DNA of 64,000 bases from positions 27,204 to 91,203 of the forward strand of contig JAFVEF010000047.1 of assembly GCA_017478105.1 (NCBI GenBank), given 5' to 3'. The notes below the pieces were generated by a model. That model ran no database searches. It was given only the letters and a program-made list of their open reading frames with translations, and was not told where the DNA came from. The position numbers were made by a program, and so were the translations under genes. Positions 5,237-59,638 of this stretch are shown one piece after another; position 1 is the first letter of the stretch; every line of letters begins with the position of its first letter. This DNA comes from Bacilli bacterium (GTDB taxonomy: Bacteria > Bacillota_I > Bacilli_A > RF39 > UBA660).

Positions 5237-6784
5237 CTAACTTCCCTTAACAACAAATACTAATCCAGCTGGCTTATCACTACTAGCATTTAATCTATCA
5301 CAATCAGCTTGAGTTTTTCCATAACCAGTCGTAGCAGCCGCTCCTGAAAACATCCATTTAGTATCAGTTACATTACTAGTATCAAAGCTAGAAAGATCTA
5401 ATGTAGGAATTTTAGTACTATAAAACATTGAATTCATTCTAGTCACATTTCTTGTATCAAAACTACTAACATCTAATGATGAAGCATTACAAAAAGCAAA
5501 CATAAAACTCATATCAGTTACATTACTAGTATCAAAACCAGTTAAATTAATTGTTGTAGCCATACTCCAATAAAACATATCACTCATATTAGTAACCTTA
5601 TTTGTATTAAAACCACTTAAATCTAATGATTGCATCATACTTTCAGCAAACATAGCATCCATATTAGTTACATTGCTCGTGTCAAAACTACTCAAATCCA
5701 AAGAAGTTAATAAACTGCCCTCAAACATATATGACATATCTTCAACATTACTTGTATCAAAATTATCCAAATTTAAACTTGTTAATTTATTATAGTAAAA
5801 CATACCAGACATATTAGTAACATTAGATGTTTCAAAATTACTTAAATCTAAAGTTGTTATTTCAGCTTCATCAAACATCCAACTCATATTGATTACATTG
5901 CTTGTATCAAAACTACTTAAATCAATTGATGTAGCTTTACTTTCATAAAAAGTTCCACTCATAGATACAATTGGTTTATTATTAATTGATGAACATAGAA
6001 CACTATTTACAGAATCAGTTGCATCTTTATCAGTTAATATAACTCCCCAACCCAAATCACTTATATCAACAGTAACTCCACGATTACTCCATTCTTTCAT
6101 ATATACATAAGTATACTGTCCATTTACATACTCTGCACCAGGTACTAGTTCACCATTGAAGGTACATGGATTATCTCCTACATAATCATACATTATTGGT
6201 ACATTATCCCATACTTCTTTATACTTATTAGCTTGTACTGATTCTATTGTAATATCTAATTCATAGGTTGCTCCATCATAACCATCTCCAGTAGATTCAC
6301 ATGAATAAACATTATTATTAGTTGTACATGTAATATCTCCTTCAACATTTGAATTATAAGTGACACTTTTAATTAAAGAAGAAGTCTCATCTCCTGGAGC
6401 TAATTCCTCCAAATAGTAATAATAATCATCTTTTTTTAACCAATCACTTTCATTATCAAAATTAATAATTGCCACTTTCTCATTATTATATTCCAAAGCA
6501 AGTGGATTATTATTTTTACTAGTCCAAGACTCATCAAGTTTTACTCTAACCCTAACAGGAATAGTTCCCTCATTCTTAGTAACAATTCTTTTCTCTGTTT
6601 CTTCTCCTGGAAGCCAATTAGTTGGTGAAGTAAAAGTCTCCCTAGTAACAGTTTTATAAGTACCACTTAAAAATAAGTTTTCAAATACTTCATTATTAGA
6701 AAAATAAGCAAATACTCCAGATATTATAAATACAAGAGCTAAACAAAATAAAAATAAAATACTTTTCTTATTTTTAATTTTCAT
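5237..6784 (-). CDS. secreted surface protein: SipW-cognate-type signal peptide + camelysin/TasA-like N-domain fused to DUF285 (BspA-like 26-residue) repeats
   Basis: N-terminal KKS-hydrophobic-FAYFSNNEVFENLF...GTY matches the camelysin/TasA leader (GTFAFFSDKEVS.N.F..GTLDL). Mid region has NW.PGE and NEGTIPVRVRV beta-sandwich motifs. C-terminal half has about 9 repeats of DLSxFDTSNVTNMSxMF. Start at ATG preceded by TAGGTGAGTAGG. Confidence 0.7.
   Translation of the reverse strand: MKIKNKKSILFLFCLALVFIISGVFAYFSNNEVFENLFLSGTYKTVTRETFTSPTNWLPGEETEKRIVTKNEGTIPVRVRVKLDESWTSKNNNPLALEYNNEKVAIINFDNESDWLKKDDYYYYLEELAPGDETSSLIKSVTYNSNVEGDITCTTNNNVYSCESTGDGYDGATYELDITIESVQANKYKEVWDNVPIMYDYVGDNPCTFNGELVPGAEYVNGQYTYVYMKEWSNRGVTVDISDLGWGVILTDKDATDSVNSVLCSSINNKPIVSMSGTFYESKATSIDLSSFDTSNVINMSWMFDEAEITTLDLSNFETSNVTNMSGMFYYNKLTSLNLDNFDTSNVEDMSYMFEGSLLTSLDLSSFDTSNVTNMDAMFAESMMQSLDLSGFNTNKVTNMSDMFYWSMATTINLTGFDTSNVTDMSFMFAFCNASSLDVSSFDTRNVTRMNSMFYSTKIPTLDLSSFDTSNVTDTKWMFSGAAATTGYGKTQADCDRLNASSDKPAGLVFVVKGS
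5281..5935 (-). repeat. tandem ~78-bp (26-codon) DUF285 repeat array inside CDS
   Basis: Reiterated DLSSFDTSNVTNM...MF units are visible in the translation, with matching reiterated ttgtatcaaaa(ct)ta... DNA motifs. Confidence 0.7.
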
Positions 6785-6813
6785 CCTACTCACCTACTAT
6801 AAAAAATATACCA

Positions 6814-13152: not shown

Positions 13153-13185
13153 ATAAAAAGAAAAAGAAGTAAATTATTTACTTCT
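13153..13185 (-). terminator. intrinsic terminator after 1122-aa surface protein gene
   Basis: agaagtaaa-tta-tttacttct hairpin at the stop, then T-run. Nearly the same hairpin terminates the paralog at 57350. Confidence 0.6.
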
Positions 13186-16100
13186 AATCTCCACTAGTAT
13201 CAACTACATATGGATCTGCCATAGACCCTGTTCCAGATAAATATTTAATACCCGGTTTTAGAGAGATTGCTGGACGGACGCCCATCGAACTGAAAACGTA
13301 GCTATTGCCACCTATGCTACCAGTGGTGTTAACCTTCCATACGTCAGCGTCGCCGTAGTCAAAATAGTAAGGTGAAACAAACCAGTAACTTTGTCCCGTT
13401 TTTCGAGCATTACTATTATTTAAAAGGTTCATATCGCGATAAGACATTAAACCAACTTTATATGTTAATTTTGCTTTATTATTACTTACACTAAATTTGT
13501 CTGTATCATTTGTGCAACTTAAACCACTTGCCCCATAAAAATACATATATGTCGTAGTATTTCCTCCGTTTGGATTCCATCCATTTACATCAGCACTACT
13601 TTGACTTCTATCATTACAATATATTGTATCTTCTATATAGTCATCATAATTTTTTAATAAATATTGCTTATACCATGCATCTATTCCACTTTTTATCGTT
13701 GAATTGGTTGTGTTTACGTTATCACCATATAACATTTCATGTTTGGCATCTTCTATACTTTTACCATTACTAATATTTATATAGTATGGCGTTGTTTCAC
13801 TTATGTAATAAATATAAGATATGGTTGTACATTCACCCGTTTCATTCCAACATGTATAATGTGCATTGTTTATACTTGTTTTATTAGTACTATCATTGAT
13901 ATTCCAGAAACTTATAGATGTATCGTTATCTAACACATACTTACTTCCATCCCAAGTAAATCCTTTTGCATATTTATAATTATTTGCTACCTCAATATAA
14001 TTTACTGCCGAATTTGAAGTTTCAGTTATATACCATAAATCACTACATGTATCATTTACAGCATTCTTACATACATATTTATTTTTTACATTACTATAAC
14101 TTGTATACCAATCTTTTCTTTCTATTGTTGTTGGGTTATTTATTGTATAAGTACCATCTCCATTATCAATATAACTATCTCCGTATATATAAGTATAATT
14201 GAAGTCAGATAAAGTATGGTTTCCACTATTAGTTAATTGAATATAGTAATAAGTACTATTATTTACTGCTGCAATGTATTGAACAGAACTATTAGTATTA
14301 GTTTGATCAGTATTTCTAAATGTATATTTTCCAACTAAGTTAGGATAATCTGTTGTCGCAGATACTTGATATGGATTATCTAAGTTATATCTATTTGCTA
14401 CTGGGTTTCCCCAAGTTACAGAATCGCCATACCAGTAAGTTGTTCGAAGCGACGAACGTGATAACATAGTTTCACCTGAAATCATTGTTTTAGTATAATG
14501 TGGATAAACTGTATTATACATATATCCTACATAAGCTGGTGAATTAGACTTTGGATTAAATTGTAGTGTTCCAAATTGTGAATAATTTGAACTAGAATTC
14601 AATGGTATTACATAAGCATTTGATGTATTATAATATGATTCTACTAAATATAGAGTTGTACAGGTTCCATCAACACTTGTATTTTTACAAGTATATTTTC
14701 CAATTAATGTTGGACCTGTTGTATCATTCCATGTAGTTTGTTCTGTTGTACCACTAACTTTAAATGTTTTATTAGTACTATCATAAGTATAATCTGTTCC
14801 ATACCAATAATTAGATGCAAGATTCTGAATTGTACTTGATGCATATCCTACATGTGTTTCTCTGGTGTTAAGACACTGATTGTTTTCTACTTCTCCATTA
14901 TAAATCATCTTCACTCCGCCGGTATCTGTTGTTCTAATCATTTGCCAACATTGCCCCGCAAATATAACATTATTCTTATCAAGTACTTGATTTCCTTCTG
15001 AATCATTTTTTGCATACCAATGATATATATCTTTAGATGGTTCCTCTGTAAATGAATCATGGTGGTTTTCTGTATACTTACGAGCTAATCCACCATTTTC
15101 AGTTTCTTCTTTTAAAACGTTATATAGCTTAGGAACTTCATAAATTGTTCCATCCATAGTTTTAGTAATACCTTGTTTGGTCCAAGTACCTCTAATATTT
15201 ATATCATAATTAGGCATTACGAATACTTGATCATTTATATAATTAACATCCTCATCTACTTCATATCCTTTAAATAAATAACCATTACAAGATAATTCAT
15301 CACTTTTTTTAGTGACATTACTATATGCCTTATAATTCTCACTTGTAAAATTTGTAATAGAACAACCACTTGGAGCATTAGCAAAATAATTAACTGTATA
15401 ACTATCTTTCAATACTGGAGTATCTGTTGTAGAAGAAGTAGCTTCAGTTTCATCTTCTATTTTAGAAGTACTTGTTAGTGATGAATTTAGTGGATAATAA
15501 TCACTAGAAACACCATTCTTTAATGAAACAACAATATTCAAAGTTTCACTACTTCCTGTTACAAGTCCTGATAAATTCCAACTAACTTTATTACTTTCTA
15601 AATTAACTTCACCGTTAGATGTACTAATATCATTTATAGTATCAACTTGAAAATAAGAATTGTTTATAAAATCATTAATAATAAGATTTTCATATGTTTT
15701 TGGATTTAAAGCTGCATTAAACAAAACATTATCTAAAGAATCCATAGTACTAATTAATTGTCTATCACTAACTCTAACAATTTCATCTTTTAAAGTACTA
15801 CCCATCTCATATTGAATACCAACAATTTCTAAATAAGAATACTTGTCTTTTAAAATAGCATAAGTTCCAACTTCCGCCGGAGTATCTTCTCCAGGACAAC
15901 CATCAGTTAAAAATAAAGCCACTAAATCAGTATTTTCCCTCTCACCGTAAGAAGAAAGTAATGAATCTAATTGTAGTAAACCAGAATTATAATTAGTACC
16001 ACCTGTCGTAGTAATACCATCAATTATATTTATAATATCAGTAGAATTATTACTAAACTCAGATAATAAAGTTGCCATACTATTAAAACTAATAATACTA

Positions 16101-16552
16101 ACTCTATTATTAGAATCAGATAATAATGAAGATACTAGTTCCCTTGAATCATTTTTTACTTGATCTAATTTTTCTCCATTCATAGATCCAGAATTATCAA
16201 TAATTAAAATTATATCTTTTTTATGATTACTAGAACTCTTAACTTTAGTTTTTAAATCTAAAGTTATTTCAGCCTTATTAGCACCTATCCATTTAGCAGA
16301 CTTATCTATTTTAAATCCACCTGGAGTAGAATAATTACCATTTAAAGTAACACTTTTAACTTCTTCAGTATAAACACCTGCGAAAGCAAGTATTTTCTTA
16401 TATGATTTTTTTAATATACCTTTAGGCATAAAAATAGATATACTAATTAATAATATAATTAAAGAAGTAATAAATAATCTCTTTTTAGATGAACTAATAA
16501 TATTAACTAATTTGCCTCTTTTAAAGAATGTTTTAATTCTATGTTTTAACAC
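13184..16552 (-). CDS. large exported surface protein: N-terminal von Willebrand factor A domain + conserved paralog-family core and C-terminal YW.SP...GVRPAISL module
   Basis: VWA MIDAS context DNSGSM...T(G)GTNY...TDG. Core LYNVLKEETENGGLARKYT...CWQMIRTTDTGGVKMIYNGE shared with the 711- and 762-aa paralogs. GTG start 7 nt after TAGGTGA. Confidence 0.75.
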   Translation of the reverse strand: MLKHRIKTFFKRGKLVNIISSSKKRLFITSLIILLISISIFMPKGILKKSYKKILAFAGVYTEEVKSVTLNGNYSTPGGFKIDKSAKWIGANKAEITLDLKTKVKSSSNHKKDIILIIDNSGSMNGEKLDQVKNDSRELVSSLLSDSNNRVSIISFNSMATLLSEFSNNSTDIINIIDGITTTGGTNYNSGLLQLDSLLSSYGERENTDLVALFLTDGCPGEDTPAEVGTYAILKDKYSYLEIVGIQYEMGSTLKDEIVRVSDRQLISTMDSLDNVLFNAALNPKTYENLIINDFINNSYFQVDTINDISTSNGEVNLESNKVSWNLSGLVTGSSETLNIVVSLKNGVSSDYYPLNSSLTSTSKIEDETEATSSTTDTPVLKDSYTVNYFANAPSGCSITNFTSENYKAYSNVTKKSDELSCNGYLFKGYEVDEDVNYINDQVFVMPNYDINIRGTWTKQGITKTMDGTIYEVPKLYNVLKEETENGGLARKYTENHHDSFTEEPSKDIYHWYAKNDSEGNQVLDKNNVIFAGQCWQMIRTTDTGGVKMIYNGEVENNQCLNTRETHVGYASSTIQNLASNYWYGTDYTYDSTNKTFKVSGTTEQTTWNDTTGPTLIGKYTCKNTSVDGTCTTLYLVESYYNTSNAYVIPLNSSSNYSQFGTLQFNPKSNSPAYVGYMYNTVYPHYTKTMISGETMLSRSSLRTTYWYGDSVTWGNPVANRYNLDNPYQVSATTDYPNLVGKYTFRNTDQTNTNSSVQYIAAVNNSTYYYIQLTNSGNHTLSDFNYTYIYGDSYIDNGDGTYTINNPTTIERKDWYTSYSNVKNKYVCKNAVNDTCSDLWYITETSNSAVNYIEVANNYKYAKGFTWDGSKYVLDNDTSISFWNINDSTNKTSINNAHYTCWNETGECTTISYIYYISETTPYYINISNGKSIEDAKHEMLYGDNVNTTNSTIKSGIDAWYKQYLLKNYDDYIEDTIYCNDRSQSSADVNGWNPNGGNTTTYMYFYGASGLSCTNDTDKFSVSNNKAKLTYKVGLMSYRDMNLLNNSNARKTGQSYWFVSPYYFDYGDADVWKVNTTGSIGGNSYVFSSMGVRPAISLKPGIKYLSGTGSMADPYVVDTSGD

Positions 16553-21169: not shown

Positions 21170-23275
21170 TTAATTAGTATCAACCACATAAGGATGTTCC
21201 ATAAAACCATCACCAGATAAATACACAGTTCCAGGTTTTAGTGAAACTGCCGGACGAAGACCCTGTGAAAAATAAATGCCATCGTTACTCAAGTGCCCAC
21301 TTGAAGTCACAACACAACTGTAAGCGTAGTATATGATGTTGAAAAAGTAAGGTGAAGCAAGCCAATAATATCGTCCCGCTTTTCGAACATTATCATTATT
21401 TAAAATATTAATTTCAGAACTTGACATCAATCCAACTTTATAAGTTAATTTTGCTTTATTATTGGATACACTAAATTTATCTGTTGTATTTGTACAACTT
21501 AAATCACTTGAAACATTATAATTTTTAAATTGAAGATATGTATTTGTCATACCGCCATCAGGATTCCATCCTCCAAGAGAACTGATTGATCTATCGTTGC
21601 AGAATATAGTATCTTCTAAGTAATCACTATAATCTTCTAATAAATAATGCTTATACCAGGCATCTACTCCACTTTTCATCGTTGAATTTACCTGATTAAC
21701 GCCATCATCGTACAGCATCTCATTAACTGCATCTTCAACACTTTTACCATTAGTAATGTTTATATAGTATGGCTTAGTTCCACTCATGTAATAAATATAA
21801 GATATGGTTGTACATTCACCTGTATCATTCCAACATGTATAATGCGCATTGTTTATACTTGTTTTATTAGTTTCATTCCAATCAAAGAAAGTTGTAGAAG
21901 TATCATTATTTAATACATATTTACTTCCATCCCAAGTGAATCCTTTTGCATATTTATAATTCTTTGAACTACTTATATATGTCATCGACGTATTTGATGT
22001 TGCAGTAGTATACCATAAGTAACTACATGTATCATTCACTGCATTCTTACATACATATTTATTTGCTCCCACACTACTATAGCTTGTATACCAGTCTTTT
22101 CTTTCTATTGTTGTTGGATTATTAATCGTATATGTACCGTCTCCATTATCGGTGAAACTATCTCCATAAGTATAAGTGTAGTTAAAATCAGACAATGTAT
22201 GATTTCCAGAATTAGATAGTGTAATATAATACATGGTCGAATTGTTTACTGCCACTATATAATACACATTACTATTAGTATAAGTTTGTGTTGCATTTCT
22301 AAAAGTATATTTACCTACTAAACTTGGATAATTTGCTGTGGAAGTAACCTGGTCTGGATTATCTAAGTTATATCTATTGGCAGTTGGACTTCCCCAAGTT
22401 ACAGAATCTGCATACCAGTATGATGTTGATAGTGAATTACTTGAAAACATCACTTCAGTTGAAGTCATTGATTTTGAATTGCTTGTATAAACAGTATTAT
22501 ACATATATCCTACATGTGCGGGTGAAGGAGCACTGGCATTAAATTCTAAAGTTCCAAATTGAGAATAATGTGAATTAGAGTTTATTGCTATTACATTAGT
22601 GTTTGGAGCATTATAAGAATCTATTAAAACTATTGCCGCACAAGAATCATCAATATTTTCACTTTTACATGTATATTTTCCAACTAATCCTGACGCAGTT
22701 GAATCACTCATTGTCGCCTTTTCAGTAGTTCCACTAACTTTAAATGTTTGAGTTGAACTATCATAAGTATAATCTGTTCCATACCAATAAGGGCCAACAA
22801 TATATTCAGAGTTTAATCCAGAATATCCTGGATGAGTACCTCTTGTATTAAGACACTGATTGTTTTCAGCTTCCCCATTGTAGATCATTTTTACTCCACC
22901 AGTATCGGTTGTTCTAATCATTTGCCAACAATGATCTGCAAATATAACATTATTCTTATCTAGTATTTGTGTACCTTGTGTATCGTTAGTTGCATACCAA
23001 TGATATATATCTTTAGAAGGAGCATCTGTAAATGAATCATGATGTGCACCTGTATACTTCGTAGCTAATCCTCCTGTTTCTGCTTCTTTTGCTAAAACAT
23101 TATATAAAGTCTTTTCATAATACTTTTTAACATTTAAATTACCATTTATATTTAAATTAGTAGAAAGTGTAGAATATCCAATAGATAGAAACATAAAAAG
23201 TACTAAAATTATATTTAGTACCAATCTCTTATTAAGTAGTTGTCTTTTCTTAACAATTCTTCTCATCTTTTTCAT
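21170..23275 (-). CDS. large exported Cys/Tyr/Asn/Thr-rich surface protein (paralog family member)
   Basis: N-terminal ~150 aa are about 90% identical to the 57350..59638 product, including the signal/anchor KKRQL..LVLFMFLSIGYSTLSTNLNING. C-terminal YYWLASP...GLRPAVSLKPG. Start at MKKMRR, 5 nt after GGTAGGT. Confidence 0.75.
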   Translation of the reverse strand: MKKMRRIVKKRQLLNKRLVLNIILVLFMFLSIGYSTLSTNLNINGNLNVKKYYEKTLYNVLAKEAETGGLATKYTGAHHDSFTDAPSKDIYHWYATNDTQGTQILDKNNVIFADHCWQMIRTTDTGGVKMIYNGEAENNQCLNTRGTHPGYSGLNSEYIVGPYWYGTDYTYDSSTQTFKVSGTTEKATMSDSTASGLVGKYTCKSENIDDSCAAIVLIDSYNAPNTNVIAINSNSHYSQFGTLEFNASAPSPAHVGYMYNTVYTSNSKSMTSTEVMFSSNSLSTSYWYADSVTWGSPTANRYNLDNPDQVTSTANYPSLVGKYTFRNATQTYTNSNVYYIVAVNNSTMYYITLSNSGNHTLSDFNYTYTYGDSFTDNGDGTYTINNPTTIERKDWYTSYSSVGANKYVCKNAVNDTCSYLWYTTATSNTSMTYISSSKNYKYAKGFTWDGSKYVLNNDTSTTFFDWNETNKTSINNAHYTCWNDTGECTTISYIYYMSGTKPYYINITNGKSVEDAVNEMLYDDGVNQVNSTMKSGVDAWYKHYLLEDYSDYLEDTIFCNDRSISSLGGWNPDGGMTNTYLQFKNYNVSSDLSCTNTTDKFSVSNNKAKLTYKVGLMSSSEINILNNDNVRKAGRYYWLASPYFFNIIYYAYSCVVTSSGHLSNDGIYFSQGLRPAVSLKPGTVYLSGDGFMEHPYVVDTN

Positions 23276-23328
23276 ACTATACCTACCATATGAATTATAT
23301 ATCAAAATTAAAAGAAATGCAAATAAAC

Positions 23329-26672: not shown

Positions 26673-28286
26673 CTATTTAACAACAAATGTCAAACCTGAT
26701 GTTTTCCACTTACTCGAATTAAATCTATCACAGTCAGCCTGAGTTTTACCATAACCTATTGTTGCTTCAGCATTACAAAACATCAAATCCATATTAGTAA
26801 CATTACTAGTATCAAAACTGCTTAAATCTAAAGTAGTTGCTTTACTTCCATTAAACATACTATACATATTAGTTACGTTGCTAGTATTAAAACTACTTAA
26901 GTCTATTGATGTTGCTTTACTATAAGAAAACATATTACTCATACTAACAACATTACTGGTATTAAAACTACTTATATTTAAAGTAGCTGCATTACTACCA
27001 TAAAACATATAATCCATATTAGTTACACTACTGGTATCAAAAGTACTTAAGTCTAGTGTGGTTGCTTTGCTACTATTAAAAAAATAACTCATATCAATAA
27101 CATTTGATGTATCAAAACTACTTAAATTTATACTAGTTGCATTGCTATATTCAAACAAAGAGTGCATATCGGTAACATTTGAAGTATCAAAACCACTTAA
27201 ACTTATATTAGTCGCTTTACTCCAAGAAAACATATGACTAATATTAGTAACATTTGAAGTATCAAAATTACTCAAGTCCAGATTATTAACTTCACTACTT
27301 GAAAACATACCATTCATATTAGTAACTTTTGAAGTATCAAAAGCACTTAGATCAAGGCTTGTTGCTTTAATCCCAGAAAACATTGCTGCCATTTCTGTAA
27401 CATTTGAAGTATCAAAGTAGCTTAAATCTATACTACTGGCTTTGCTATAACTGAACATATAAAGCATTGAAACAATCGGTTTATTATTTATACTACTACA
27501 CAATGTTGTAGTAACTGGTTCAGTCGATTCTTTATCAGTTAGAGCAACACCCCAACCATCATCAGTGATGTTTCTCCAATCTACATAATCTTTCTCTTGT
27601 CTATATCTATAAGTATACTGTCCATTTACATATTCTGCCCCTGGTATTAATTCACCATCAAATGTACATGGATTATCTCCAACATAATCATACATTATTG
27701 GAACATTTTCCCATACCTTATCATACTTATTAGCCTGAACAGTTTCTGTTGTTATATTTAATCGATAAGTTGCCCCATCATAACCATTCCCAGTAGATTC
27801 ACAAGTATTTACTCCATTTTCAAATGTACAAATAACATCTGCCTCAACATTAGGATTAAACGTAACACTTTTAAGTAAAGATTCAGTACTCTCCCCTGGT
27901 GCTAGTTCTTTTGTATAGTAATAATATTCATCTTTATAAAGCCAATCATTTTGATTATCTAAATTAATTATCGCAACTTTTTCATTATTATATTCTAATG
28001 ATAATGTCTCATTATTTCTACTTGTCCATGATTCATCTAATTTAACCCTAACACGTACAGGAATAGTTCCTTCATTTTTAGTTGTTATTGTTTTTGGTGT
28101 TTCATCACCAGGAGTCCAATTAGTTGGACTTTGAAATACTTCTCTTGTAACAGTTTTATAAATTCCTGCTGAAAAAATATTTTCAAATGTATCAGTAGAT
28201 AACAAATATGCAAAAGATCCCAAAACTAAGAAAACTACAAAAACTAAAACAATAAATATTAAACTTTTCTTATTCTTTAATTTCAC
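26673..28286 (-). CDS. secreted surface protein: SipW-cognate-type signal + camelysin/TasA-like N-domain + DUF285 repeats (paralog of 5237..6784)
   Basis: GTG start after AGGTGA. N-terminus (M)KLKNKKS...SFAYLLSTDTFENIF...GIYKT. About 9 DLSxFDTSNVTNM..MF repeats. N-domain nearly identical to the paralog. Confidence 0.7.
   Translation of the reverse strand: MKLKNKKSLIFIVLVFVVFLVLGSFAYLLSTDTFENIFSAGIYKTVTREVFQSPTNWTPGDETPKTITTKNEGTIPVRVRVKLDESWTSRNNETLSLEYNNEKVAIINLDNQNDWLYKDEYYYYTKELAPGESTESLLKSVTFNPNVEADVICTFENGVNTCESTGNGYDGATYRLNITTETVQANKYDKVWENVPIMYDYVGDNPCTFDGELIPGAEYVNGQYTYRYRQEKDYVDWRNITDDGWGVALTDKESTEPVTTTLCSSINNKPIVSMLYMFSYSKASSIDLSYFDTSNVTEMAAMFSGIKATSLDLSAFDTSKVTNMNGMFSSSEVNNLDLSNFDTSNVTNISHMFSWSKATNISLSGFDTSNVTDMHSLFEYSNATSINLSSFDTSNVIDMSYFFNSSKATTLDLSTFDTSSVTNMDYMFYGSNAATLNISSFNTSNVVSMSNMFSYSKATSIDLSSFNTSNVTNMYSMFNGSKATTLDLSSFDTSNVTNMDLMFCNAEATIGYGKTQADCDRFNSSKWKTSGLTFVVK
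26726..27440 (-). repeat. tandem 26-codon DUF285 repeat array inside CDS
   Basis: Reiterated protein and DNA units, as in 5281..5935. Confidence 0.7.
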
Positions 28287-34280: not shown

Positions 34281-35048
34281 TTACAACAGTTTTATAAAAT
34301 CTAAAACTTGATTAAAACTAATTCCCATAAAAAATACTAACGTAAGTCCCAGAAGAAGAAAAGGTCCAAAAGGAATAATTCTTTTCCCTCTACTATATAG
34401 TAAAAATAATGATATAGGTAACGCTAAAACAGAAGAAATAAATATAACTAATAATCCTACTACAGGATGAAGAAGTATTCCAAAAACAAACATCATTTTA
34501 ATATCTCCTCCACCTAATGATTCTTTCTTAAATAAATAATTACCCATAAGCATAATTAAATACATAATTCCAAATAAACATAAACCACTAAATATTTTTA
34601 AAAGACAAGTACTAACTCCATACTGTAATGCCGCTATAACTAAGAAATATCCTGAAAAAAATATAAGTACTTCATCAGGTATAATTAAATAAGTTATATC
34701 AGAAACAGATATTATAGATAACATTGATACAATACCAATAGCTATAAATAAATCATAACTAAAGCCAAAAACAAAATAAGAAAGAGCAAATAAAACCCCA
34801 GTAAAAAACTCCATTGAAGTAGATAAACTATCAATAGATGCTCCACAATATCGGCACTTCTTACCAAGTAAATAATAAGAAACGATTGGAATCATATCAA
34901 ACAAAGATAAAGTATGATGACAATGATCACAATAACTTCTACTCTTTATACAATCTTCTCCTTTAGGAAGTCTAAGACCAACTACTGTATAAAAAGAACC
35001 CATTAAAGTACCTAAAATAAAAAAGATAATTATATATAATATTTCCAT
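34281..35048 (-). CDS. prepilin peptidase (A24 family; PilD/ComC-like)
   Basis: Zn-ribbon CDHCHHTL...CRYCG, IPDEV and GGGDIKMM catalytic aspartate motifs, multiple TM helices. Confidence 0.85.
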   Translation of the reverse strand: MEILYIIIFFILGTLMGSFYTVVGLRLPKGEDCIKSRSYCDHCHHTLSLFDMIPIVSYYLLGKKCRYCGASIDSLSTSMEFFTGVLFALSYFVFGFSYDLFIAIGIVSMLSIISVSDITYLIIPDEVLIFFSGYFLVIAALQYGVSTCLLKIFSGLCLFGIMYLIMLMGNYLFKKESLGGGDIKMMFVFGILLHPVVGLLVIFISSVLALPISLFLLYSRGKRIIPFGPFLLLGLTLVFFMGISFNQVLDFIKLL

Positions 35049-35070
35049 ATAAATAATTACCTCCTTTTTA

Positions 35071-36522
35071 TTATTTAATTTGACTATAAATAGAAAACAT
35101 TGGTTGAATAATAGAAACTAATATAATACCAACAACTACTGCTAAGAAACAAATCAAAATTGGTTCAACTAAACTCTTCATTTGATCAATAACATTTTTA
35201 TGTAACATTTGAAAGTGATCAGCAACTTTTTCCATCATTTGACCAAGTTGTCCAGTAGTTTCACCAGTAACAATCATTTCATAAGCAACAACAGGAATAG
35301 CCCATTGTCCTTTAAAAGCAGATGATATAGAATCTCCCTTACCAAGATTTTCTAATGTCTGATTAATTATTTTTTTATAAACTTCATTATTAGTTATTTT
35401 AGATAATATTTCCATACTATCAGTAATAAAAACACCATGATTTAATAATGAAGCAAATGTTTTTGTAAAATTAGCAATTTCATTATATATTATTATATCT
35501 TTAGCAACAGGTATATGCATAAGAATTATTTGAACAGTTTCTCTAAATTTTTGAACTTTTTTATATAACTGCATAAAGATAAATACAACAACAAAAATAA
35601 CAAGTAATACATAATACCAATAATTAGTTAAAAAACCACTTACATTTAATATTGCCATAGTAAGAGCAGGCATTTCAGCTCCGTTTTCTTTAAACATTGA
35701 AGAAAACTGAGGAACTAAATAAGTAAGCATAAATACTAATACTCCTATCGCGATAGTTAATACAACAACTGGATATGTCATAGCAGATTTCATTTGTTTT
35801 CTAGTTTGATCCATTGAAGTATAATACTCACTCATATCATCCAATATTGATGGTAAATCACCAGTCATTTCAGCTGTCTTTACCATGTTTATTAAAAGCT
35901 TAGGATATACTTTATCCTGCATTAACATCGCATCAGATAAACTTTCTCCTTTTAGTAATTGATAAACTAATTGATTAAAACTTTTCTTCAAATTAGGCTT
36001 CTTAGTTTGTTTCGCAAGTATTTTAACTGAATCAGCTAAAGGAATACCTGATTTTATATATGTAGACAATTGTGTAAGAGAAAAAGATAAATCTCCTGCA
36101 CCAATATTATGATTAGCCCCAATGTCTATATCAAATTTATCACGTTGTTTAATACTTAATACTTGATAATTTAAACTTAATAAGAAATTTCTAACATCAT
36201 TTTCACTTTCTGCTTCAAAAGTACCTTGTTCTTTTTTACCATTATCATTAATAACAGTATAGCGAAAATCAATTAATGGTCTTTTGATTTTCTCACGATG
36301 TTCAGTTGCTAAAGATTTATCAGAAACTTCATTAGGGATAGTAGTAGCATTCAAAGAAGTATTAGGTTGACTAGATCCAACTGCTCCAGGCATTATATTA
36401 TTATAATTAACAGGATCTTTTGGTAATGCATCACTAGCACTAACAACACTATTCTGAGGATTTTGAACATTATTATCAACTATATTTTGTTTATTATCAT
36501 CTTTTTTCTTTTTAAATAACAT
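35071..36522 (-). CDS. type II secretion / type IV pilus / competence platform protein (GspF/PilC/ComGB family) with low-complexity N-terminal extension
   Basis: Two T2SSF domains, 3 TM segments, and a Gln/Asn/Ser-rich N-terminal ~120 aa. Confidence 0.8.
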   Translation of the reverse strand: MLFKKKKDDNKQNIVDNNVQNPQNSVVSASDALPKDPVNYNNIMPGAVGSSQPNTSLNATTIPNEVSDKSLATEHREKIKRPLIDFRYTVINDNGKKEQGTFEAESENDVRNFLLSLNYQVLSIKQRDKFDIDIGANHNIGAGDLSFSLTQLSTYIKSGIPLADSVKILAKQTKKPNLKKSFNQLVYQLLKGESLSDAMLMQDKVYPKLLINMVKTAEMTGDLPSILDDMSEYYTSMDQTRKQMKSAMTYPVVVLTIAIGVLVFMLTYLVPQFSSMFKENGAEMPALTMAILNVSGFLTNYWYYVLLVIFVVVFIFMQLYKKVQKFRETVQIILMHIPVAKDIIIYNEIANFTKTFASLLNHGVFITDSMEILSKITNNEVYKKIINQTLENLGKGDSISSAFKGQWAIPVVAYEMIVTGETTGQLGQMMEKVADHFQMLHKNVIDQMKSLVEPILICFLAVVVGIILVSIIQPMFSIYSQIK

Positions 36523-42647: not shown

Positions 42648-42674
42648 AAACAAAAAAAGAAGCAAAACTTCTTT
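42648..42674 (-). terminator. intrinsic terminator after Rpn-like gene
   Basis: aaagaag-caaaa-cttcttt hairpin at the stop with T-run on minus strand. Confidence 0.5.
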
Positions 42675-43659
42675 ATAGATTATTAGACAGAATATTTTCA
42701 ATTTCAGAAACATCCAAAGAAACAACTTTAGATATTAAATCAAGACTAATCTTTTCAGCATTCATTCGTTTTATAATATCTAGTTTAGTATCATTCTCTC
42801 CCTTGAAATAGCCTTCTTTCTCTCCTTTAGAATATCCTTCTTTCTCTCCTTTAGAATATCCCTCTTTCTCTCCTTTAGAATATCCCTCTTTCTCTCCTTT
42901 AGAATATCCCTCTTTCTCTCCTTTAGAAAATCCTTCCTTCTCTCCTAGAACATATCCCTCTTTTTCACCTCGATGTTTGCCCGCCAGAAATCCCTTGTGA
43001 TTTCCTAAATCATATAAAGCTAATTCTTTATCATAAGACTCTAATAAATCATCTTCCTCACTCACTTCTATTGCTTCTTCAACATATTCTTTCATCATAT
43101 CCAATCCCTCTCCTATTTTTAAGGAATCCTCAACACTAGGCAACACTAATCCCAGTAAATATTTTTCTGATTCCTCTAAGTTATGTATACCGTTAGTATA
43201 CCATTTTTTTAGAAGATTAGGAATATATATTTGTACAAATATTAATTTATTTGTTAGTTTTATATCTTCATCATTTTGAATATAATAAATATCAACTATT
43301 TTATCATTTCCTTTAAAATAAAAATTATTTATATTAAACTGAATTACCTGAACATACTCTAAATCCCTAGATCTCTTTCTTTTTCTTAAACTAGAATACA
43401 GTCTATGAGCATATTCCATATTTCTTTCTAAAATATCTATATCTCCATTATTATTAACCTCTATATTTATCTTACTACCATCTATATTCGCAATATAATC
43501 CCCTATTAAGTTTTTTTCAATATCCTTATTCTTATTAAATACATTTTTACTTAATGTTATATGTTTCAATAATTTTTCAAACGATATATCTAAATAATAA
43601 GAAATAAATAATGCTGAATACTTTAATCTATTTTCATTCAAAAACATAGTCTTCATCAT
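42673..43659 (-). CDS. Rpn/YhgA-like PD-(D/E)XK protein (recombination-promoting nuclease / putative transposase family) with C-terminal GEKEGYSK repeat tail; 5' end uncertain
   Basis: ...DGSKINIEVNNNGD...RNMEYAHRLYSSL aligns with the Rpn IEHQ...RMMRY core, with Q replaced by N. C-terminal KGEKEGYSKGEKEGYS repeats resemble the EKGIEKGIQQG tail of E. coli RpnA. The reading frame stays open upstream to 43824 past a GGAGG, but with no ATG/GTG/TTG. Confidence 0.5.
   Translation of the reverse strand: MMKTMFLNENRLKYSALFISYYLDISFEKLLKHITLSKNVFNKNKDIEKNLIGDYIANIDGSKINIEVNNNGDIDILERNMEYAHRLYSSLRKRKRSRDLEYVQVIQFNINNFYFKGNDKIVDIYYIQNDEDIKLTNKLIFVQIYIPNLLKKWYTNGIHNLEESEKYLLGLVLPSVEDSLKIGEGLDMMKEYVEEAIEVSEEDDLLESYDKELALYDLGNHKGFLAGKHRGEKEGYVLGEKEGFSKGEKEGYSKGEKEGYSKGEKEGYSKGEKEGYSKGEKEGYFKGENDTKLDIIKRMNAEKISLDLISKVVSLDVSEIENILSNNL
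42812..42960 (-). repeat. tandem array of about six 24-bp units (ccttctttctctcctttagaatat) encoding (K)GEKEGYS repeats
   Basis: Units 1-2 are identical, units 3-4 identical with 1 change, later units degenerate. In-frame 8-codon periodicity. Confidence 0.85.
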
Positions 43660-53527: not shown

Positions 53528-54459
53528 CTAATAATTAATACAAGTGTTATTCATAGTATCAGCTGCATCTTCTACTAAGAAATCTCTTACATAGCTTTCA
53601 AAATTAGACTTAGCAACACTATCAGTAATAGGTTGTTCTCTAAATGCAATTTTTGATAAGTCACTAGAACCATAATCAAAATCATATGCACTTAAACTAG
53701 TTCCATTACTATCAATTGGAACAATAATTGTAACTGTCTCAGTACCTTTAGTATAATCTATTCTAGCATCTAAAGAATCATTTCCAGTACATGTATAAGT
53801 AATAGATAAATCACTTAACTCAACTTCATCACCAAACATAGTAATTGGAGCAGCAGCTGGATCATAATCTAATCCCCAAGCTTCTTTAAAATTATCAGCT
53901 TGAACTGTCTCTGTAGTAATAAATAATTTATAAGTACCACCTAAATATCCTGCATCACTAGAATCACAAGTATGAGTCATTCCATCTAAACTTTCATTAC
54001 AAGTAACTGTAGGTTGATATAAAGGATTAAATGTAACACTCTTTAATACTGAAGTAGTAGCTTGATTAGGAGCTAATGCATTTTTAAAATAATAATAACC
54101 ATCACTATAAACCCAATCATCTTGATTATCTAAATCAATTAAAGAAACTAAATTACCATTATAACTTAAATCTAATTGAGTACCACTTTCATTTTTCCAT
54201 TCTTCTCTAAATTTAACTCTAACTCTAACAGACATAGTTCCTTTATTAGTAGTAACTATAGTTTTAGGAGTTACATCTCCAGGAGCCCAATTAGTAGGAC
54301 TTTCAAATGCCTCAGTAGTTTGAGTTTTATATTTACCAGCATTAAATACGTTTTCAAAAGTATCAGTAGATTGTAAATAAGCAATTGTTACTCCAATAAG
54401 TACAACTACAAATACCGCAATTATCGCAACTAATGATTTTTTATTTTTTAATTTCACTA
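53528..54459 (-). CDS. secreted protein with SipW-cognate-type signal peptide and camelysin/TasA-like domain (no DUF285 repeats; distinct C-terminal domain)
   Basis: GTG start 7 nt after AGGAAG gives (M)KLKNKKSLVAIIAVFVVVLIGVTIAYLQSTDTFENVFNAGKYKT...NWAPGD...NKGTMSVRVRV, paralogous to the two DUF285 fusion proteins. Confidence 0.65.
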
Positions 54460-54555
54460 TAACACTTCCTATTCTATTAATTATTATAAACAAATATATT
54501 AAATAAAACAATAAAATAAATAAAAAAATGATATTGCTTGTCAATATCATTTACA

Positions 54556-57319: not shown

Positions 57320-57351
57320 CAAAACAAAAAAAGAAGTAAAACATTACTTCT
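57320..57351 (-). terminator. intrinsic terminator after 762-aa surface protein gene
   Basis: agaagtaa-aaca-ttacttct hairpin at the stop, then long T-run. Paralogous to the terminator at 13153..13185. Confidence 0.6.
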
Positions 57352-59638
57352 AATTTCCACTAGTATCAACTATATATGGATTTGCCATAGAACCATCTCC
57401 ATCAGAATAACGGGTGCCTGGTGTCAGTGAAACTGCCGGACGTACGCCGACAGAGTTGTTGACGATGTAGTTGTTCATGTTACCGTTCGTGTCCACGTAA
57501 CGACCGCGAGCAAAGTTTTCGGTGAAATAGCGAGGCGAAGCAAGCCAATAAATTTGTCCTGTTTTTCGAGCGTTACTATTATTTAAAATGTTCGCTTCCG
57601 GACTTGACATCAATCCTACTTTATAAGTTAATTTTGCATTATTATTGCTTATACTAAATTGATTGATTGTGTTTGTACAACTTAAATCACTTGTTACACT
57701 ATATTCCTTGAATTGTAGATAATCATTTGTCATACCACCATCTGGATTCCATCCATTTAATGCTCTTATACTTCTATCATTACAGAATATTGTATCTTCT
57801 ATGTATTCATCATAATCTTCTAATAAATAATGTTTATACCATGCATCTACTCCACTTTTCATTGTAGAATTTGTGGTGTTTTTTGTCAGCATATCTTCTA
57901 GTGCTTTATCAACCATTGTAACTCCATCTTTTAATGTTATATAAACCATATAGCCAGTTCCAGTATAATAATACACATAAGCTACTGTCGCACATGTTTT
58001 GAGTCCTAGTGATACACACATATAGTGATGTGTAGAAATATTATTCATATTATTATAGTTTTCAATTTCTATTGGATCTACCAATGTATAATTGGTTCCA
58101 TCCCATGTTACACTACTACCATAATAATGATTTGGTGCATAATTATAACCTGAAGCACTAATTGAATCAATCATTCGGAGTGTTTCTTCAGTACATGTTG
58201 CATTTTCAGTATTACACGTATACTTATAATCACCATAATTACTTGAATTAATCACTAATTCATCTTTTCTTACTAACAATGAATCCGTAAGAGTTAATCC
58301 ACTTCTTGTCTTTCCAATTATTATCTTCTCACCCGCATTTATATACGTGTAGTTCATGGATGTTGTTGCTGTAGTATATCTTGGAGAAGCACATGTTGTA
58401 CTACTATCATTACAAGTATATTTATTTTTATAATTGGCAAAGTTTGTATACCAATCAGATAATGTCACATTGGTTGGATTATTAATTGTATATGTACCAT
58501 CTCCGTTGTCACGAATGGAATCTCCAAATACTATTGGTTCATAAGCAGACAATAAGTTACCACTTTGTAGTTGTTTATAATACATTGTTGTGTTATTAAC
58601 TGCCGCAATGTAATATACACCTGTATTAGTATAATTTTGAGTAGTATTTCTAAATGTATATTTTCCTACCAAATTAGGATAATCTGTTGTACCACTTACT
58701 TGGTATGGGTTTACTAATGAATATCGATTAGCAGTTAAAGTACCATAATCAATACTATCCGCATACCAGTATAATGTTCCTAAAGATCTTGATTGTAACA
58801 TAGTTTGTGTTGTTGTAAAACTTTGACTTGTTGTTCCACTTGTTGAACTATATGCATAAACATCTCCGTACATGTATCCAACATAAGTTGGTGAATTTTC
58901 ACTTGCATTAAATTGTAGTATTCCAAATTGTGAATAATTGGAACTTGAGTTTAATGGTATTACATAAGCACTAGATGTATTATTATAAGATTCAACTAAA
59001 TAAAGAGTTTCACAAATACCATTCACATCTGCTAATTTGCAAGTATATTTTCCAACCAATCCAGGTCCATTGCTCTCATTCCACATAGTTTGTTCTGTTG
59101 TACCACTAACTTTAAATGTTTCAGTTGAACTATCATATATATAATCAGTTCCATACCAATAATTTGAAGCTAGATTTTGACTCGTTCTTGCTGCATACCC
59201 TACATGTGTTCCTCTGGTATTAAGACATTTCCCGTCGTCTGCCTCTCCATTATATATCATTTTTACTCCACCAGTATCTGTTGTTCTTATCATTTGCCAA
59301 CAGTGATTGGCAAATATAACATTATTTTTATCAAGTATTTGTGTACCTTCAGTGTTATTTTTGGCATACCAGTGAAATATATCTTTAGAAGGAGCTTCTG
59401 TAAAGGAATCATGATGTTCACCTGTATACTTCTTAGCTAACCCTCCAGTTTCTGCTTCTTTTGCTAGAACGTTATAAAGAGTTGGTTCATAATACTTTTT
59501 GACATTTAAATTACCATTTATATTTAAATTAGTAGAAAGTGTTGAATATCCAATAGATAGAAACATAAAAAGTACTAATAAAATATTTAGTACTAGTTTT
59601 TTATTAAATAGTTGTCTTTTCTTAACTATCTTTTTCAT
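57350..59638 (-). CDS. large exported Cys/Tyr/Asn/Thr-rich surface protein (paralog family member)
   Basis: Signal/anchor MKKIVKKRQLFNKKLVLNILLVLFMFLSIGYSTLSTNLNING, core ...CWQMIRTTDTGGVKMIYNGE..., C-terminal IYWLASP...GVRPAVSLTPG. ATG after TATATAGTAGGTG. Confidence 0.75.
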   Translation of the reverse strand: MKKIVKKRQLFNKKLVLNILLVLFMFLSIGYSTLSTNLNINGNLNVKKYYEPTLYNVLAKEAETGGLAKKYTGEHHDSFTEAPSKDIFHWYAKNNTEGTQILDKNNVIFANHCWQMIRTTDTGGVKMIYNGEADDGKCLNTRGTHVGYAARTSQNLASNYWYGTDYIYDSSTETFKVSGTTEQTMWNESNGPGLVGKYTCKLADVNGICETLYLVESYNNTSSAYVIPLNSSSNYSQFGILQFNASENSPTYVGYMYGDVYAYSSTSGTTSQSFTTTQTMLQSRSLGTLYWYADSIDYGTLTANRYSLVNPYQVSGTTDYPNLVGKYTFRNTTQNYTNTGVYYIAAVNNTTMYYKQLQSGNLLSAYEPIVFGDSIRDNGDGTYTINNPTNVTLSDWYTNFANYKNKYTCNDSSTTCASPRYTTATTSMNYTYINAGEKIIIGKTRSGLTLTDSLLVRKDELVINSSNYGDYKYTCNTENATCTEETLRMIDSISASGYNYAPNHYYGSSVTWDGTNYTLVDPIEIENYNNMNNISTHHYMCVSLGLKTCATVAYVYYYTGTGYMVYITLKDGVTMVDKALEDMLTKNTTNSTMKSGVDAWYKHYLLEDYDEYIEDTIFCNDRSIRALNGWNPDGGMTNDYLQFKEYSVTSDLSCTNTINQFSISNNNAKLTYKVGLMSSPEANILNNSNARKTGQIYWLASPRYFTENFARGRYVDTNGNMNNYIVNNSVGVRPAVSLTPGTRYSDGDGSMANPYIVDTSGN

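Follow-up and report, generated by a model that had tools for sequence, protein, structure and literature searches.

The 64,000 nt stretch of DNA examined here (hereafter the window) covers positions 27,204 to 91,203 of contig JAFVEF010000047.1, from an uncultured "Bacilli bacterium" metagenome-assembled genome (MAG), and carries three paralogous genes, A, B and C, with a compositionally aberrant patch near their 3′ ends. Gene C (57350..59638, minus strand) encodes a hypothetical protein of 762 aa (MBR1937087.1, IJ842_05270; a 100% match to homolog P0001) with an N-terminal hydrophobic signal or anchor segment, a Cys- and Tyr-rich centre and a C-terminal DUF6273 domain. Its assignment as the target gene of a diversity-generating retroelement (DGR) draws on the open reading frame (ORF) list, its translation, Pfam and an AlphaFold2 model. 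The DUF6273 match (PF19789; residues 652-739, E 4.4e-5) is partial, spanning profile positions 88-171 of 172, and its 23.9 bits lie just above the gathering cut-off of 23.5. A related target gene in another genome (locus L008) also clears this cut-off and several homologs bear precomputed PF19789 annotations, while paralogs A and B fall below the Pfam threshold for the domain. The patch of gene C comprises the codons for residues 703-735 and is very probably the variable repeat (VR) of a DGR target gene, a statement about its origin and not about present-day activity.

The patch is conspicuous by composition alone. The original prediction gave about 58% GC for bases 57411-57470, and the measured value is 58.3%, compared with 50.0% for the full span 57405-57560 and 26.0% for the window; the sequence around the patch within the gene is ordinary (~30% GC). 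The codon string quoted in that prediction reads exactly so on the minus strand. Inside a 28-codon patch the ratio of AAC to AAT is 7:0, against 14:60 in the remainder of gene C, and across the window AAC makes up 7% of AAC plus AAT. Codons ending in C (NNC) account for 2.9% of the 19,559 codons in the window. When counted in sliding windows of 33 codons over all ORFs (17,959 windows; mean 0.94, sd 1.4), the three highest counts belong to the homologous patch in each paralog: C with 18/33 NNC (57434-57532), A with 15/33 (13262-13360) and B with 10/33 (21251-21349), and the next best has six. The NNC excess in the three patches is far beyond chance. The density of AAC and other C-ending codons atypical of this genome is thus a stronger anomaly than had been claimed, the three paralogs are real (and the MAG has a fourth copy, on a different contig), and C is, as predicted, the most pronounced of the three, with A and B being decayed copies.

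In DGRs, a template repeat (TR) is transcribed, a reverse transcriptase (RT) copies it while misincorporating opposite template adenines, and the mutagenised cDNA replaces the VR. Over 135 nt of DNA, gene C and its homolog P0008 differ at 28 sites, all of which (28/28) are positions where a shared template could hold adenine, and A is present in one of the two copies at 20 of them. A search pattern that allowed any base (N) at the positions presumed to derive from A was scanned against the GTDB species genomes and IMG/VR. It matched six loci in the former and none in the latter, so the scan gives no support for a phage-borne cassette. Three of the loci (L004, L006 and L008) carry two copies of the pattern about 432 bp apart. 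The upstream copy forms the 3′ end of a target gene that encodes a VWA...DUF6273 protein; the downstream copy is non-coding, has AAC at every variable codon (WLASPNYFNNNNANGRNVNTNGNMNNNNVNNTNGVRPA) and is the TR. This type 1 TR (TR1) is 115 nt long, TGGCTTGCTTCGCCTAACTATTTCAACAACAACAACGCTAACGGTCGTAACGTGAACACGAACGGTAACATGAACAACAACAACGTCAACAACACTAACGGCGTGCGTCCGGCA. It is followed by a small basic ORF (118-140 aa, pI 9.0-9.25) that overlaps the start of an RT gene and gave no Pfam or NCBIfam match, even at E values up to 10, nor any Avd (PF05635) signature. The RT is a 498 aa RVT_1 protein with IGAMTSQ and YMDD motifs (RVT_1 E 1e-18 to 1e-19), found beside both TR1 and a second template type, TR2. 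Two abutting loci, L005 and L007, together make up one ordinary cassette with its VR 433 bp from the TR, and a further such cassette (L022) comes from a JGI metagenome.

These cassettes, seen directly in the DNA of the relatives, show the adenine specificity expected of a DGR. In the cognate pairs, the VR departs from its TR at 23/38 A sites and 0/77 non-A sites in L006 (TR1), at 19/39 and 0/76 in L008 (TR1), and at 22/45 and 0/72 in L009 (TR2). The active VR of L004 has 2/76 non-A changes. The length of a VR can also differ from that of its TR: the VR of L004 (3703-3830) is longer by one codon, and patch length ranges from 26 to 31 residues inside clusters of 90% identity (P0275, P0280, P0282-P0284 and P0294). 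Simple adenine mutagenesis does not explain this variation, which may come from variant TRs, TR2 having one codon more, or from indels during homing.

Some other properties of the cassettes were recorded. Identity of the TR at five loci raised the possibility of a mobile cassette, which was rejected as the flanks are equally conserved (92-100%) and the loci simply come from close relatives. Cassettes of the TR2 type lie about 2 kb upstream of chromosomal mutS. The cassette RTs (L004:4760-6256 and L006:1147-2643) are extended at the C-terminus by about 150 aa that match Pfam MutS_I weakly (E 7e-5; 23.4 bits, cut-off 20.6), and a MutS_I-like C-terminal extension has been reported previously in a few DGR RTs (PMC5758913). 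In L019 (10001-11318) and L020 the RT is split into ORFs of 326 aa and 88 aa, a state found on 15 contigs of relatives in all; these loci are apparently inactivated cassettes.

The VR of gene C (57434..57548, minus strand) is 115 nt long and collinear with the TR1 sequences of L004, L006 and L008. Relative to TR1, it is changed at 15 of 39 adenines and at 3 of 75 other sites (Fisher p = 4e-6), the adenine count that the original prediction had named as a check on a DGR origin, and its substitutions lie across 57443-57532. The match is specific to TR1, as there are 13/71 non-A changes when C is compared with TR2. The VR of C thus appears well preserved and, judged by this alignment, written from a type 1 TR. 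The patch had been described as resembling either a template or a variable repeat; it is a VR rather than a TR, as the sequence is coding and substitutions are already present in it. An interpretation that needs no retroelement is that the patch is a static module, either acquired horizontally or constrained by its amino acids. It forms a sharp compositional island, as such a module might, and its GVRPAVSL motif requires some GC-rich codons, but amino acid constraint does not explain the synonymous choices (AAC over AAT at 7:0, CGT or CGC rather than AGA, TAC rather than TAT). The island also coincides base for base with the TR homology in an otherwise ordinary gene, and the differences from the TR are adenine-specific. 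The VR/TR pattern effectively refutes a static module, which is scarcely credible as an explanation.

The VR ends 82 nt ahead of the stop codon, i.e., at the 3′ end of the ORF. A GC-rich block, GGCGTACGTCCGGCA (57434-57448), closes the VR and is common to VR and TR. It is followed by a 19 nt flank, GTTTCACTGACACCAGGCA (57415-57433), which is specific to the VR and identical to the flank of active, cassette-linked VRs, whereas the corresponding TR flank is ATTTCCAACTCACACA. This arrangement was delineated by comparing 3′ flanks from L002, L004, L006, L007, L008, L022 and the window, and by analogy with known DGRs we infer that the GGCGTACGTCCGGCA/GTTTCACTGACACCAGGCA segment (57415..57448, minus strand) is a putative initiation of mutagenic homing (IMH/IMH*)-like element. 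Folding of the DNA between 57290 and 57425 revealed a terminator-like hairpin, AGAAGTAA-TGTT-TTACTTCT, followed by a T-run (57332..57351, minus strand). It overlaps the stop codon of gene C, and the motif is also present after paralog A; the overall fold is unexceptional (z = -1.6). The hairpin probably ends the target transcript, and a role as a DGR target-recognition hairpin is speculative.

If VRs are rewritten by homing, close orthologs would be expected to differ chiefly within the patch. Such patch-restricted change was observed directly between gene C (P0001) and its ortholog P0272 (IJ715_04270), which comes from another MAG and belongs to the same 90% cluster. The two proteins differ at 25 residues, 18 of which are within residues 703-730 and six in the tail after the patch, and they are about 99% identical outside the patch. 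Every residue of the P0272 patch is reachable from TR1 by A-only changes. Because this patch is fully rewritten and consistent with the TR, homing appears to have been very recent in the lineage of C. More widely, among 57 distinct patches of TR1 length, 29 contain no residue that is unreachable by A-only mutagenesis and 14 contain one; shuffled controls contain 6-14. In the cassette-linked, VWA-type cluster c3 the patch differs in nearly every member of at least 90% identity, and 9 of the 22 differences between P0008 and P0009 are inside the patch. Patches are identical or nearly so in P0018 and P0021, in most of cluster c1 and in cluster c5, a non-VWA ortholog cluster in which all five members share one patch. 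The shared patches in the cluster of C, described below, and the monomorphic c5 therefore suggest that non-adjacent targets are rewritten less often.

Variation of this kind could also come from recombination or gene conversion among paralogs, as in cassette-style antigenic variation, with the patch being the segment most often exchanged. Each genome has at least four paralogs, and P0032 is identical to C over the C-terminal three quarters with a diverged N-terminal end, which hints at mosaicism. The six tail differences between P0001 and P0272, and the varying patch length (26-31 residues) among cluster members, would fit as well. However, the scaffold nucleotides are invariant and variation falls exactly on the TR adenines, the window contains no paralog able to donate the patch of C, and the 29 patches noted above are fully accounted for by A-only mutagenesis. 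Gene conversion is highly unlikely to be the source of the variation.

The preferred interpretation, origin as a DGR VR, extends to the other paralogs. Paralog A (13184..16552, minus strand) encodes a protein of 1122 aa, recognised by its Pfam VWA domain and by paralogy, with a C-terminus that resembles DUF6273. In architecture it matches the cassette-linked targets of relatives, yet housekeeping genes directly follow it and there is no cassette. Its decayed VR (13268..13384, minus strand) has 15/33 NNC codons, 18-20 non-A differences from TR1 and a diverged 3′ flank, and at least seven of its residues are unreachable by A-only changes. Paralog B (P0090; 21170..23305, minus strand) is 711 aa long (annotated as IJ842_05090, 701 aa), and in its decayed VR (21248..21364, minus strand) 10/33 codons are NNC and 19 non-A sites differ from TR1. 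The fourth paralog, P0034 (IJ842_04960, 765 aa), is on another contig (153 kb) of the same MAG (L001:10001-12298). Its patch has 37% GC and 4 NNC in 49 codons, and the conserved YWLASP has degenerated to YFLLAT.

Compared with TR1, the number of non-A changes rises from 3 in C to 18 in A, 19 in B and 37 in P0034, and 3, 11, 15 and 27 of these, respectively, are from GC to AT. The NNC content drops along the same series, and the 3′ flanks of A and B have diverged. This decay series is plain from the alignments, and its direction indicates that A, B and P0034 are older VRs, apparently no longer overwritten and drifting back to AT. One genome might then preserve the full life cycle of a VR, with C fresh, A and B half-decayed and P0034 fully decayed, and in a genome so strongly AT-biased the NNC-rich, adenine-free footprint could serve as a clock of the last rewriting and reveal past DGR activity where neither TR nor RT is present; this proposal is tentative and rather unlikely to hold in full. 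A bolder version is that a distant cassette may act on C in trans, at a rate far slower than that of the cassette-adjacent VWA-type targets. If that were true, distance or flank sequence would tune the rates of diversification among paralogs.

Several observations weigh against the interpretation of gene C as a DGR target. No TR-like copy was found in the window by blastn-short, an A-tolerant ungapped scan or blastn with the TR region, and even the closest non-self candidates differ at 35 or more non-A sites. No RT or Avd-like ORF was detected in the window by six-frame searches for YxDD and G..SQ, by tblastn or by Pfam searches of the ORFs; three YxDD matches occur, none in an RT context, and tblastn of the relatives' RT and small ORF against the window returned nothing below E 0.8. 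None of the RT homologs found could be linked to the source MAG or to the sample it came from; P0148 and P0187 lie on contigs from other samples. The TR1 sequences compared with C come from the genomes of other species and are not its cognate TR. The three non-A changes of C (C>A, C>T and G>A) are all from GC to AT, and one of them yields Glu, which A-mutagenesis of AAC cannot reach. A lineage-specific variant TR, with A at the deviant AAA, ACA, GGA, GTA and CCA sites, was considered and rejected, since all of the TRs recovered from GTDB genomes and from a scan of JGI metagenomes are canonical; the deviant sites of C and P0008 are not in common, and this explanation of the deviations of C is unsupported. 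Finally, the exact patch of C is common to four members of its cluster, although at least one of these is the same strain (L021, 99.94% identity over 16.6 kb), so that the shared patch weighs little.

The template and RT implied by the original prediction thus both exist, but in related genomes and not in the window. Either gene C is a remote target on which a cassette elsewhere in the genome acts in trans, or its VR was orphaned recently, and the balance tips only slightly towards the former. An orphaned, or fossil, VR would have been written by a DGR whose cassette has since been lost or inactivated, leaving it static and decaying. It is a variant of the DGR explanation and not another origin, and it is a substantial possibility, if somewhat short of an even one. 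The missing TR, Avd and RT, the lack of any traceable to the source MAG, and the GC to AT direction of the three non-A changes would all be expected of it. The same genome already holds the decayed VRs of A, B and P0034, and A, despite its cassette-linked architecture, has no cassette downstream. The split RT genes of relatives show that cassettes do get inactivated, and the single patch of cluster c5 could be static in the same way. Against a fossil state, the 3/75 non-A changes of C are comparable to the 2/76 of the active VR in L004, its IMH-like flank is intact, and the patch of its ortholog P0272 is fully rewritten. The window is also only 64 kb of a 167 kb contig in an incomplete MAG. 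A perfect VR may likewise have no cassette nearby: L003:1-3666 (CAMYYH010000007.1, from an uncultured Tenericutes MAG) carries a TR1-type VR with 21 A changes and 0 non-A changes, and directly after it come a further paralog, the patch of which has decayed, and then a PolC-like gene. The 3.3 kb downstream of this VR contain neither a TR nor a small ORF or RT, and a pattern scan of that species-representative assembly found no TR1 elsewhere.

By analogy with characterised DGRs, the RNA of the TR would be reverse-transcribed with adenine-specific errors and the cDNA would replace the VR at the 3′ end of the target gene, turning the variable AAC codons of the TR into NNC in the VR. This replacement would rewrite the ligand-binding face of a C-type-lectin-like DUF6273 domain on a secreted or surface protein. 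The scaffold codons seem to have been selected to be free of adenine (CGT and not AGA, GTG or GTC and not GTA, CCG and not CCA, ACG and not ACA). Each homing event would then stamp a C-ending codon set of about 52% GC onto an AT-biased genome, overwriting the drift of the host, and once homing stops the patch would decay, as in A, B and P0034. On this account the compositional anomaly exists because of the AAC to NNC codons, the adenine-free scaffold and repeated homing over AT drift.

Gene C has more than 1,000 homologs, chiefly from ruminant gut assemblies. They share an invariant scaffold, YWLASP..F....A.GR.V...G.M....V....GVRPAVSL, and the intervening positions are filled from N/S/Y/G/D/T/A/V/I/F/H/C/L/R. 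Apart from the N-terminal signal region, the patch is the most variable segment of the protein. An AlphaFold2 (AF2) model of residues 541-762 has a predicted local distance difference test (pLDDT) score of 85.6 and supersedes a shorter model (residues 590-762, pLDDT 63) in which the domain was truncated. The VR region is modelled as beta strands (model residues 157-185, pLDDT ~90). Foldseek searches of the PDB gave CD23 C-type lectin domains as the top matches, which at E ~1 are not significant, and a search of BFVD matched phage DUF6273 proteins (E 0.01-0.06). The original prediction had asked whether the domain models as a C-type-lectin or Ig-like DGR target fold; DUF6273 is a published C-type-lectin-like DGR target (PMC10743442, PMC11792537).

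Among the N-termini compared (ORFs 57350-59638, 21170-23305, 53528-54550 and 5237-6793), those of the DGR-target paralogs share a hydrophobic leader (...LVLFMFLSIGYSTLSTNLNINGNL), and genes nearby match Peptidase_M73 (camelysin/TasA-like) profiles at the same end. Together these sequence matches suggest a common, possibly SipW-type, export signal for this set of putative surface proteins.

The canonical DGR is that of Bordetella phage BPP-1, which comprises the mtd VR, TR, avd and brt. The cassettes of the relatives resemble it in their order (target with VR, TR, small basic ORF, RT), in the position of the VR at the 3′ end of the target, and in the (I/L)GxxxSQ and YMDD motifs of the RT. A GC-rich block closes the VR/TR homology, with divergence immediately beyond, like IMH and IMH*. 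Unlike BPP-1, they have a small ORF with no detectable Avd/PF05635 signature and an RT with the C-terminal extension (weak MutS_I) described above, the host is cellular and the location chromosomal; in addition, the 64 kb window itself has no cassette. DGRs with multiple or remote targets are known, e.g., in Treponema denticola, Legionella and Bacteroides. There are here likewise several paralogous targets per genome, some of them away from the cassette (e.g., L003), but servicing in trans is in this case a proposal.

Among described systems with the same domain, DGR targets with a DUF6273 variable domain and the VR at its C-terminus are published for the Faecalibacterium prophages Lelie, CP11, Roos and Pioen (PMC11792537) and for phages nd4 and nd12, where they are the tentaclins (PMC10743442). 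The genes described here share with these the DUF6273 domain, the VR at its C-terminal end, an AAC-rich TR and adenine-specific substitutions, and the beta strands modelled for the window VR fit the published description of a beta-hairpin. In contrast, their products are large chromosomal proteins (700-1270 aa), some with VWA, and their hosts are uncultured, low-GC rumen Bacilli or Erysipelotrichales-like bacteria in which they have housekeeping neighbourhoods and are not in prophages. The lack of an IMG/VR match and the partial Pfam match (23.9 against 23.5 bits) are further differences. DGRs, AAC-rich TRs and DUF6273 targets with a C-terminal VR are already documented, and nothing here departs mechanistically from known DGR biology. 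The system belongs to an under-studied host group, and its modest added interest lies in the decay series within one genome and in the detection of a VR by codon composition alone. In an AT-rich genome, a DGR VR can be flagged by a short run of codons that end in C and are poor in adenine, even when the template and RT lie elsewhere. The homologs document a large family of predicted surface proteins, diversified by DGRs, in rumen Bacilli that are uncultured and have small genomes; for such bacteria, variable adhesins may be important in attaching to hosts, to particles or to partner cells. The graded decay of the sister copies shows the fate of a VR once homing stops.

The window as a whole is a 26% GC chromosome segment with nearly all genes on the minus strand. 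They include housekeeping genes (AddAB, RecD2, RuvAB, Tgt/QueA, and Obg with ribosomal proteins L21 and L27), a two-component system, type IV pilus-type genes and DUF285 surface proteins. At 34281-36522 are genes for a prepilin peptidase and T2SS-F. The GC skew is strongly negative window-wide, at about -0.2 to -0.5 per kb; weaker dips occur near 14-15, 22-23 and 58-59 kb. The only positive stretch is 19-21 kb, which contains the two-component system, encoded on the plus strand. Because this sole positive stretch has plus-strand genes, the skew is taken to follow the coding strand, with no switch like that of a replication origin visible. Two arrays of 75 nt tandem repeats (5347-6021 and 26702-27526; seven and nine copies, 60-76% identity) sit inside paralogous DUF285 proteins (ORFs 5237-6793 and 26673-28286), and their flanks are 79% identical (6093-6392 and 27595-27894). 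A 24 nt tandem repeat (42767-42994; at least seven copies that are up to 93% identical) sits in ORF 42673-43659, which has an N-terminal match to PD-(D/E)XK_2 (transposase-like nuclease), and on the coding strand would encode a repeated octapeptide of the type G-Y-S-K-G-E-K-E.

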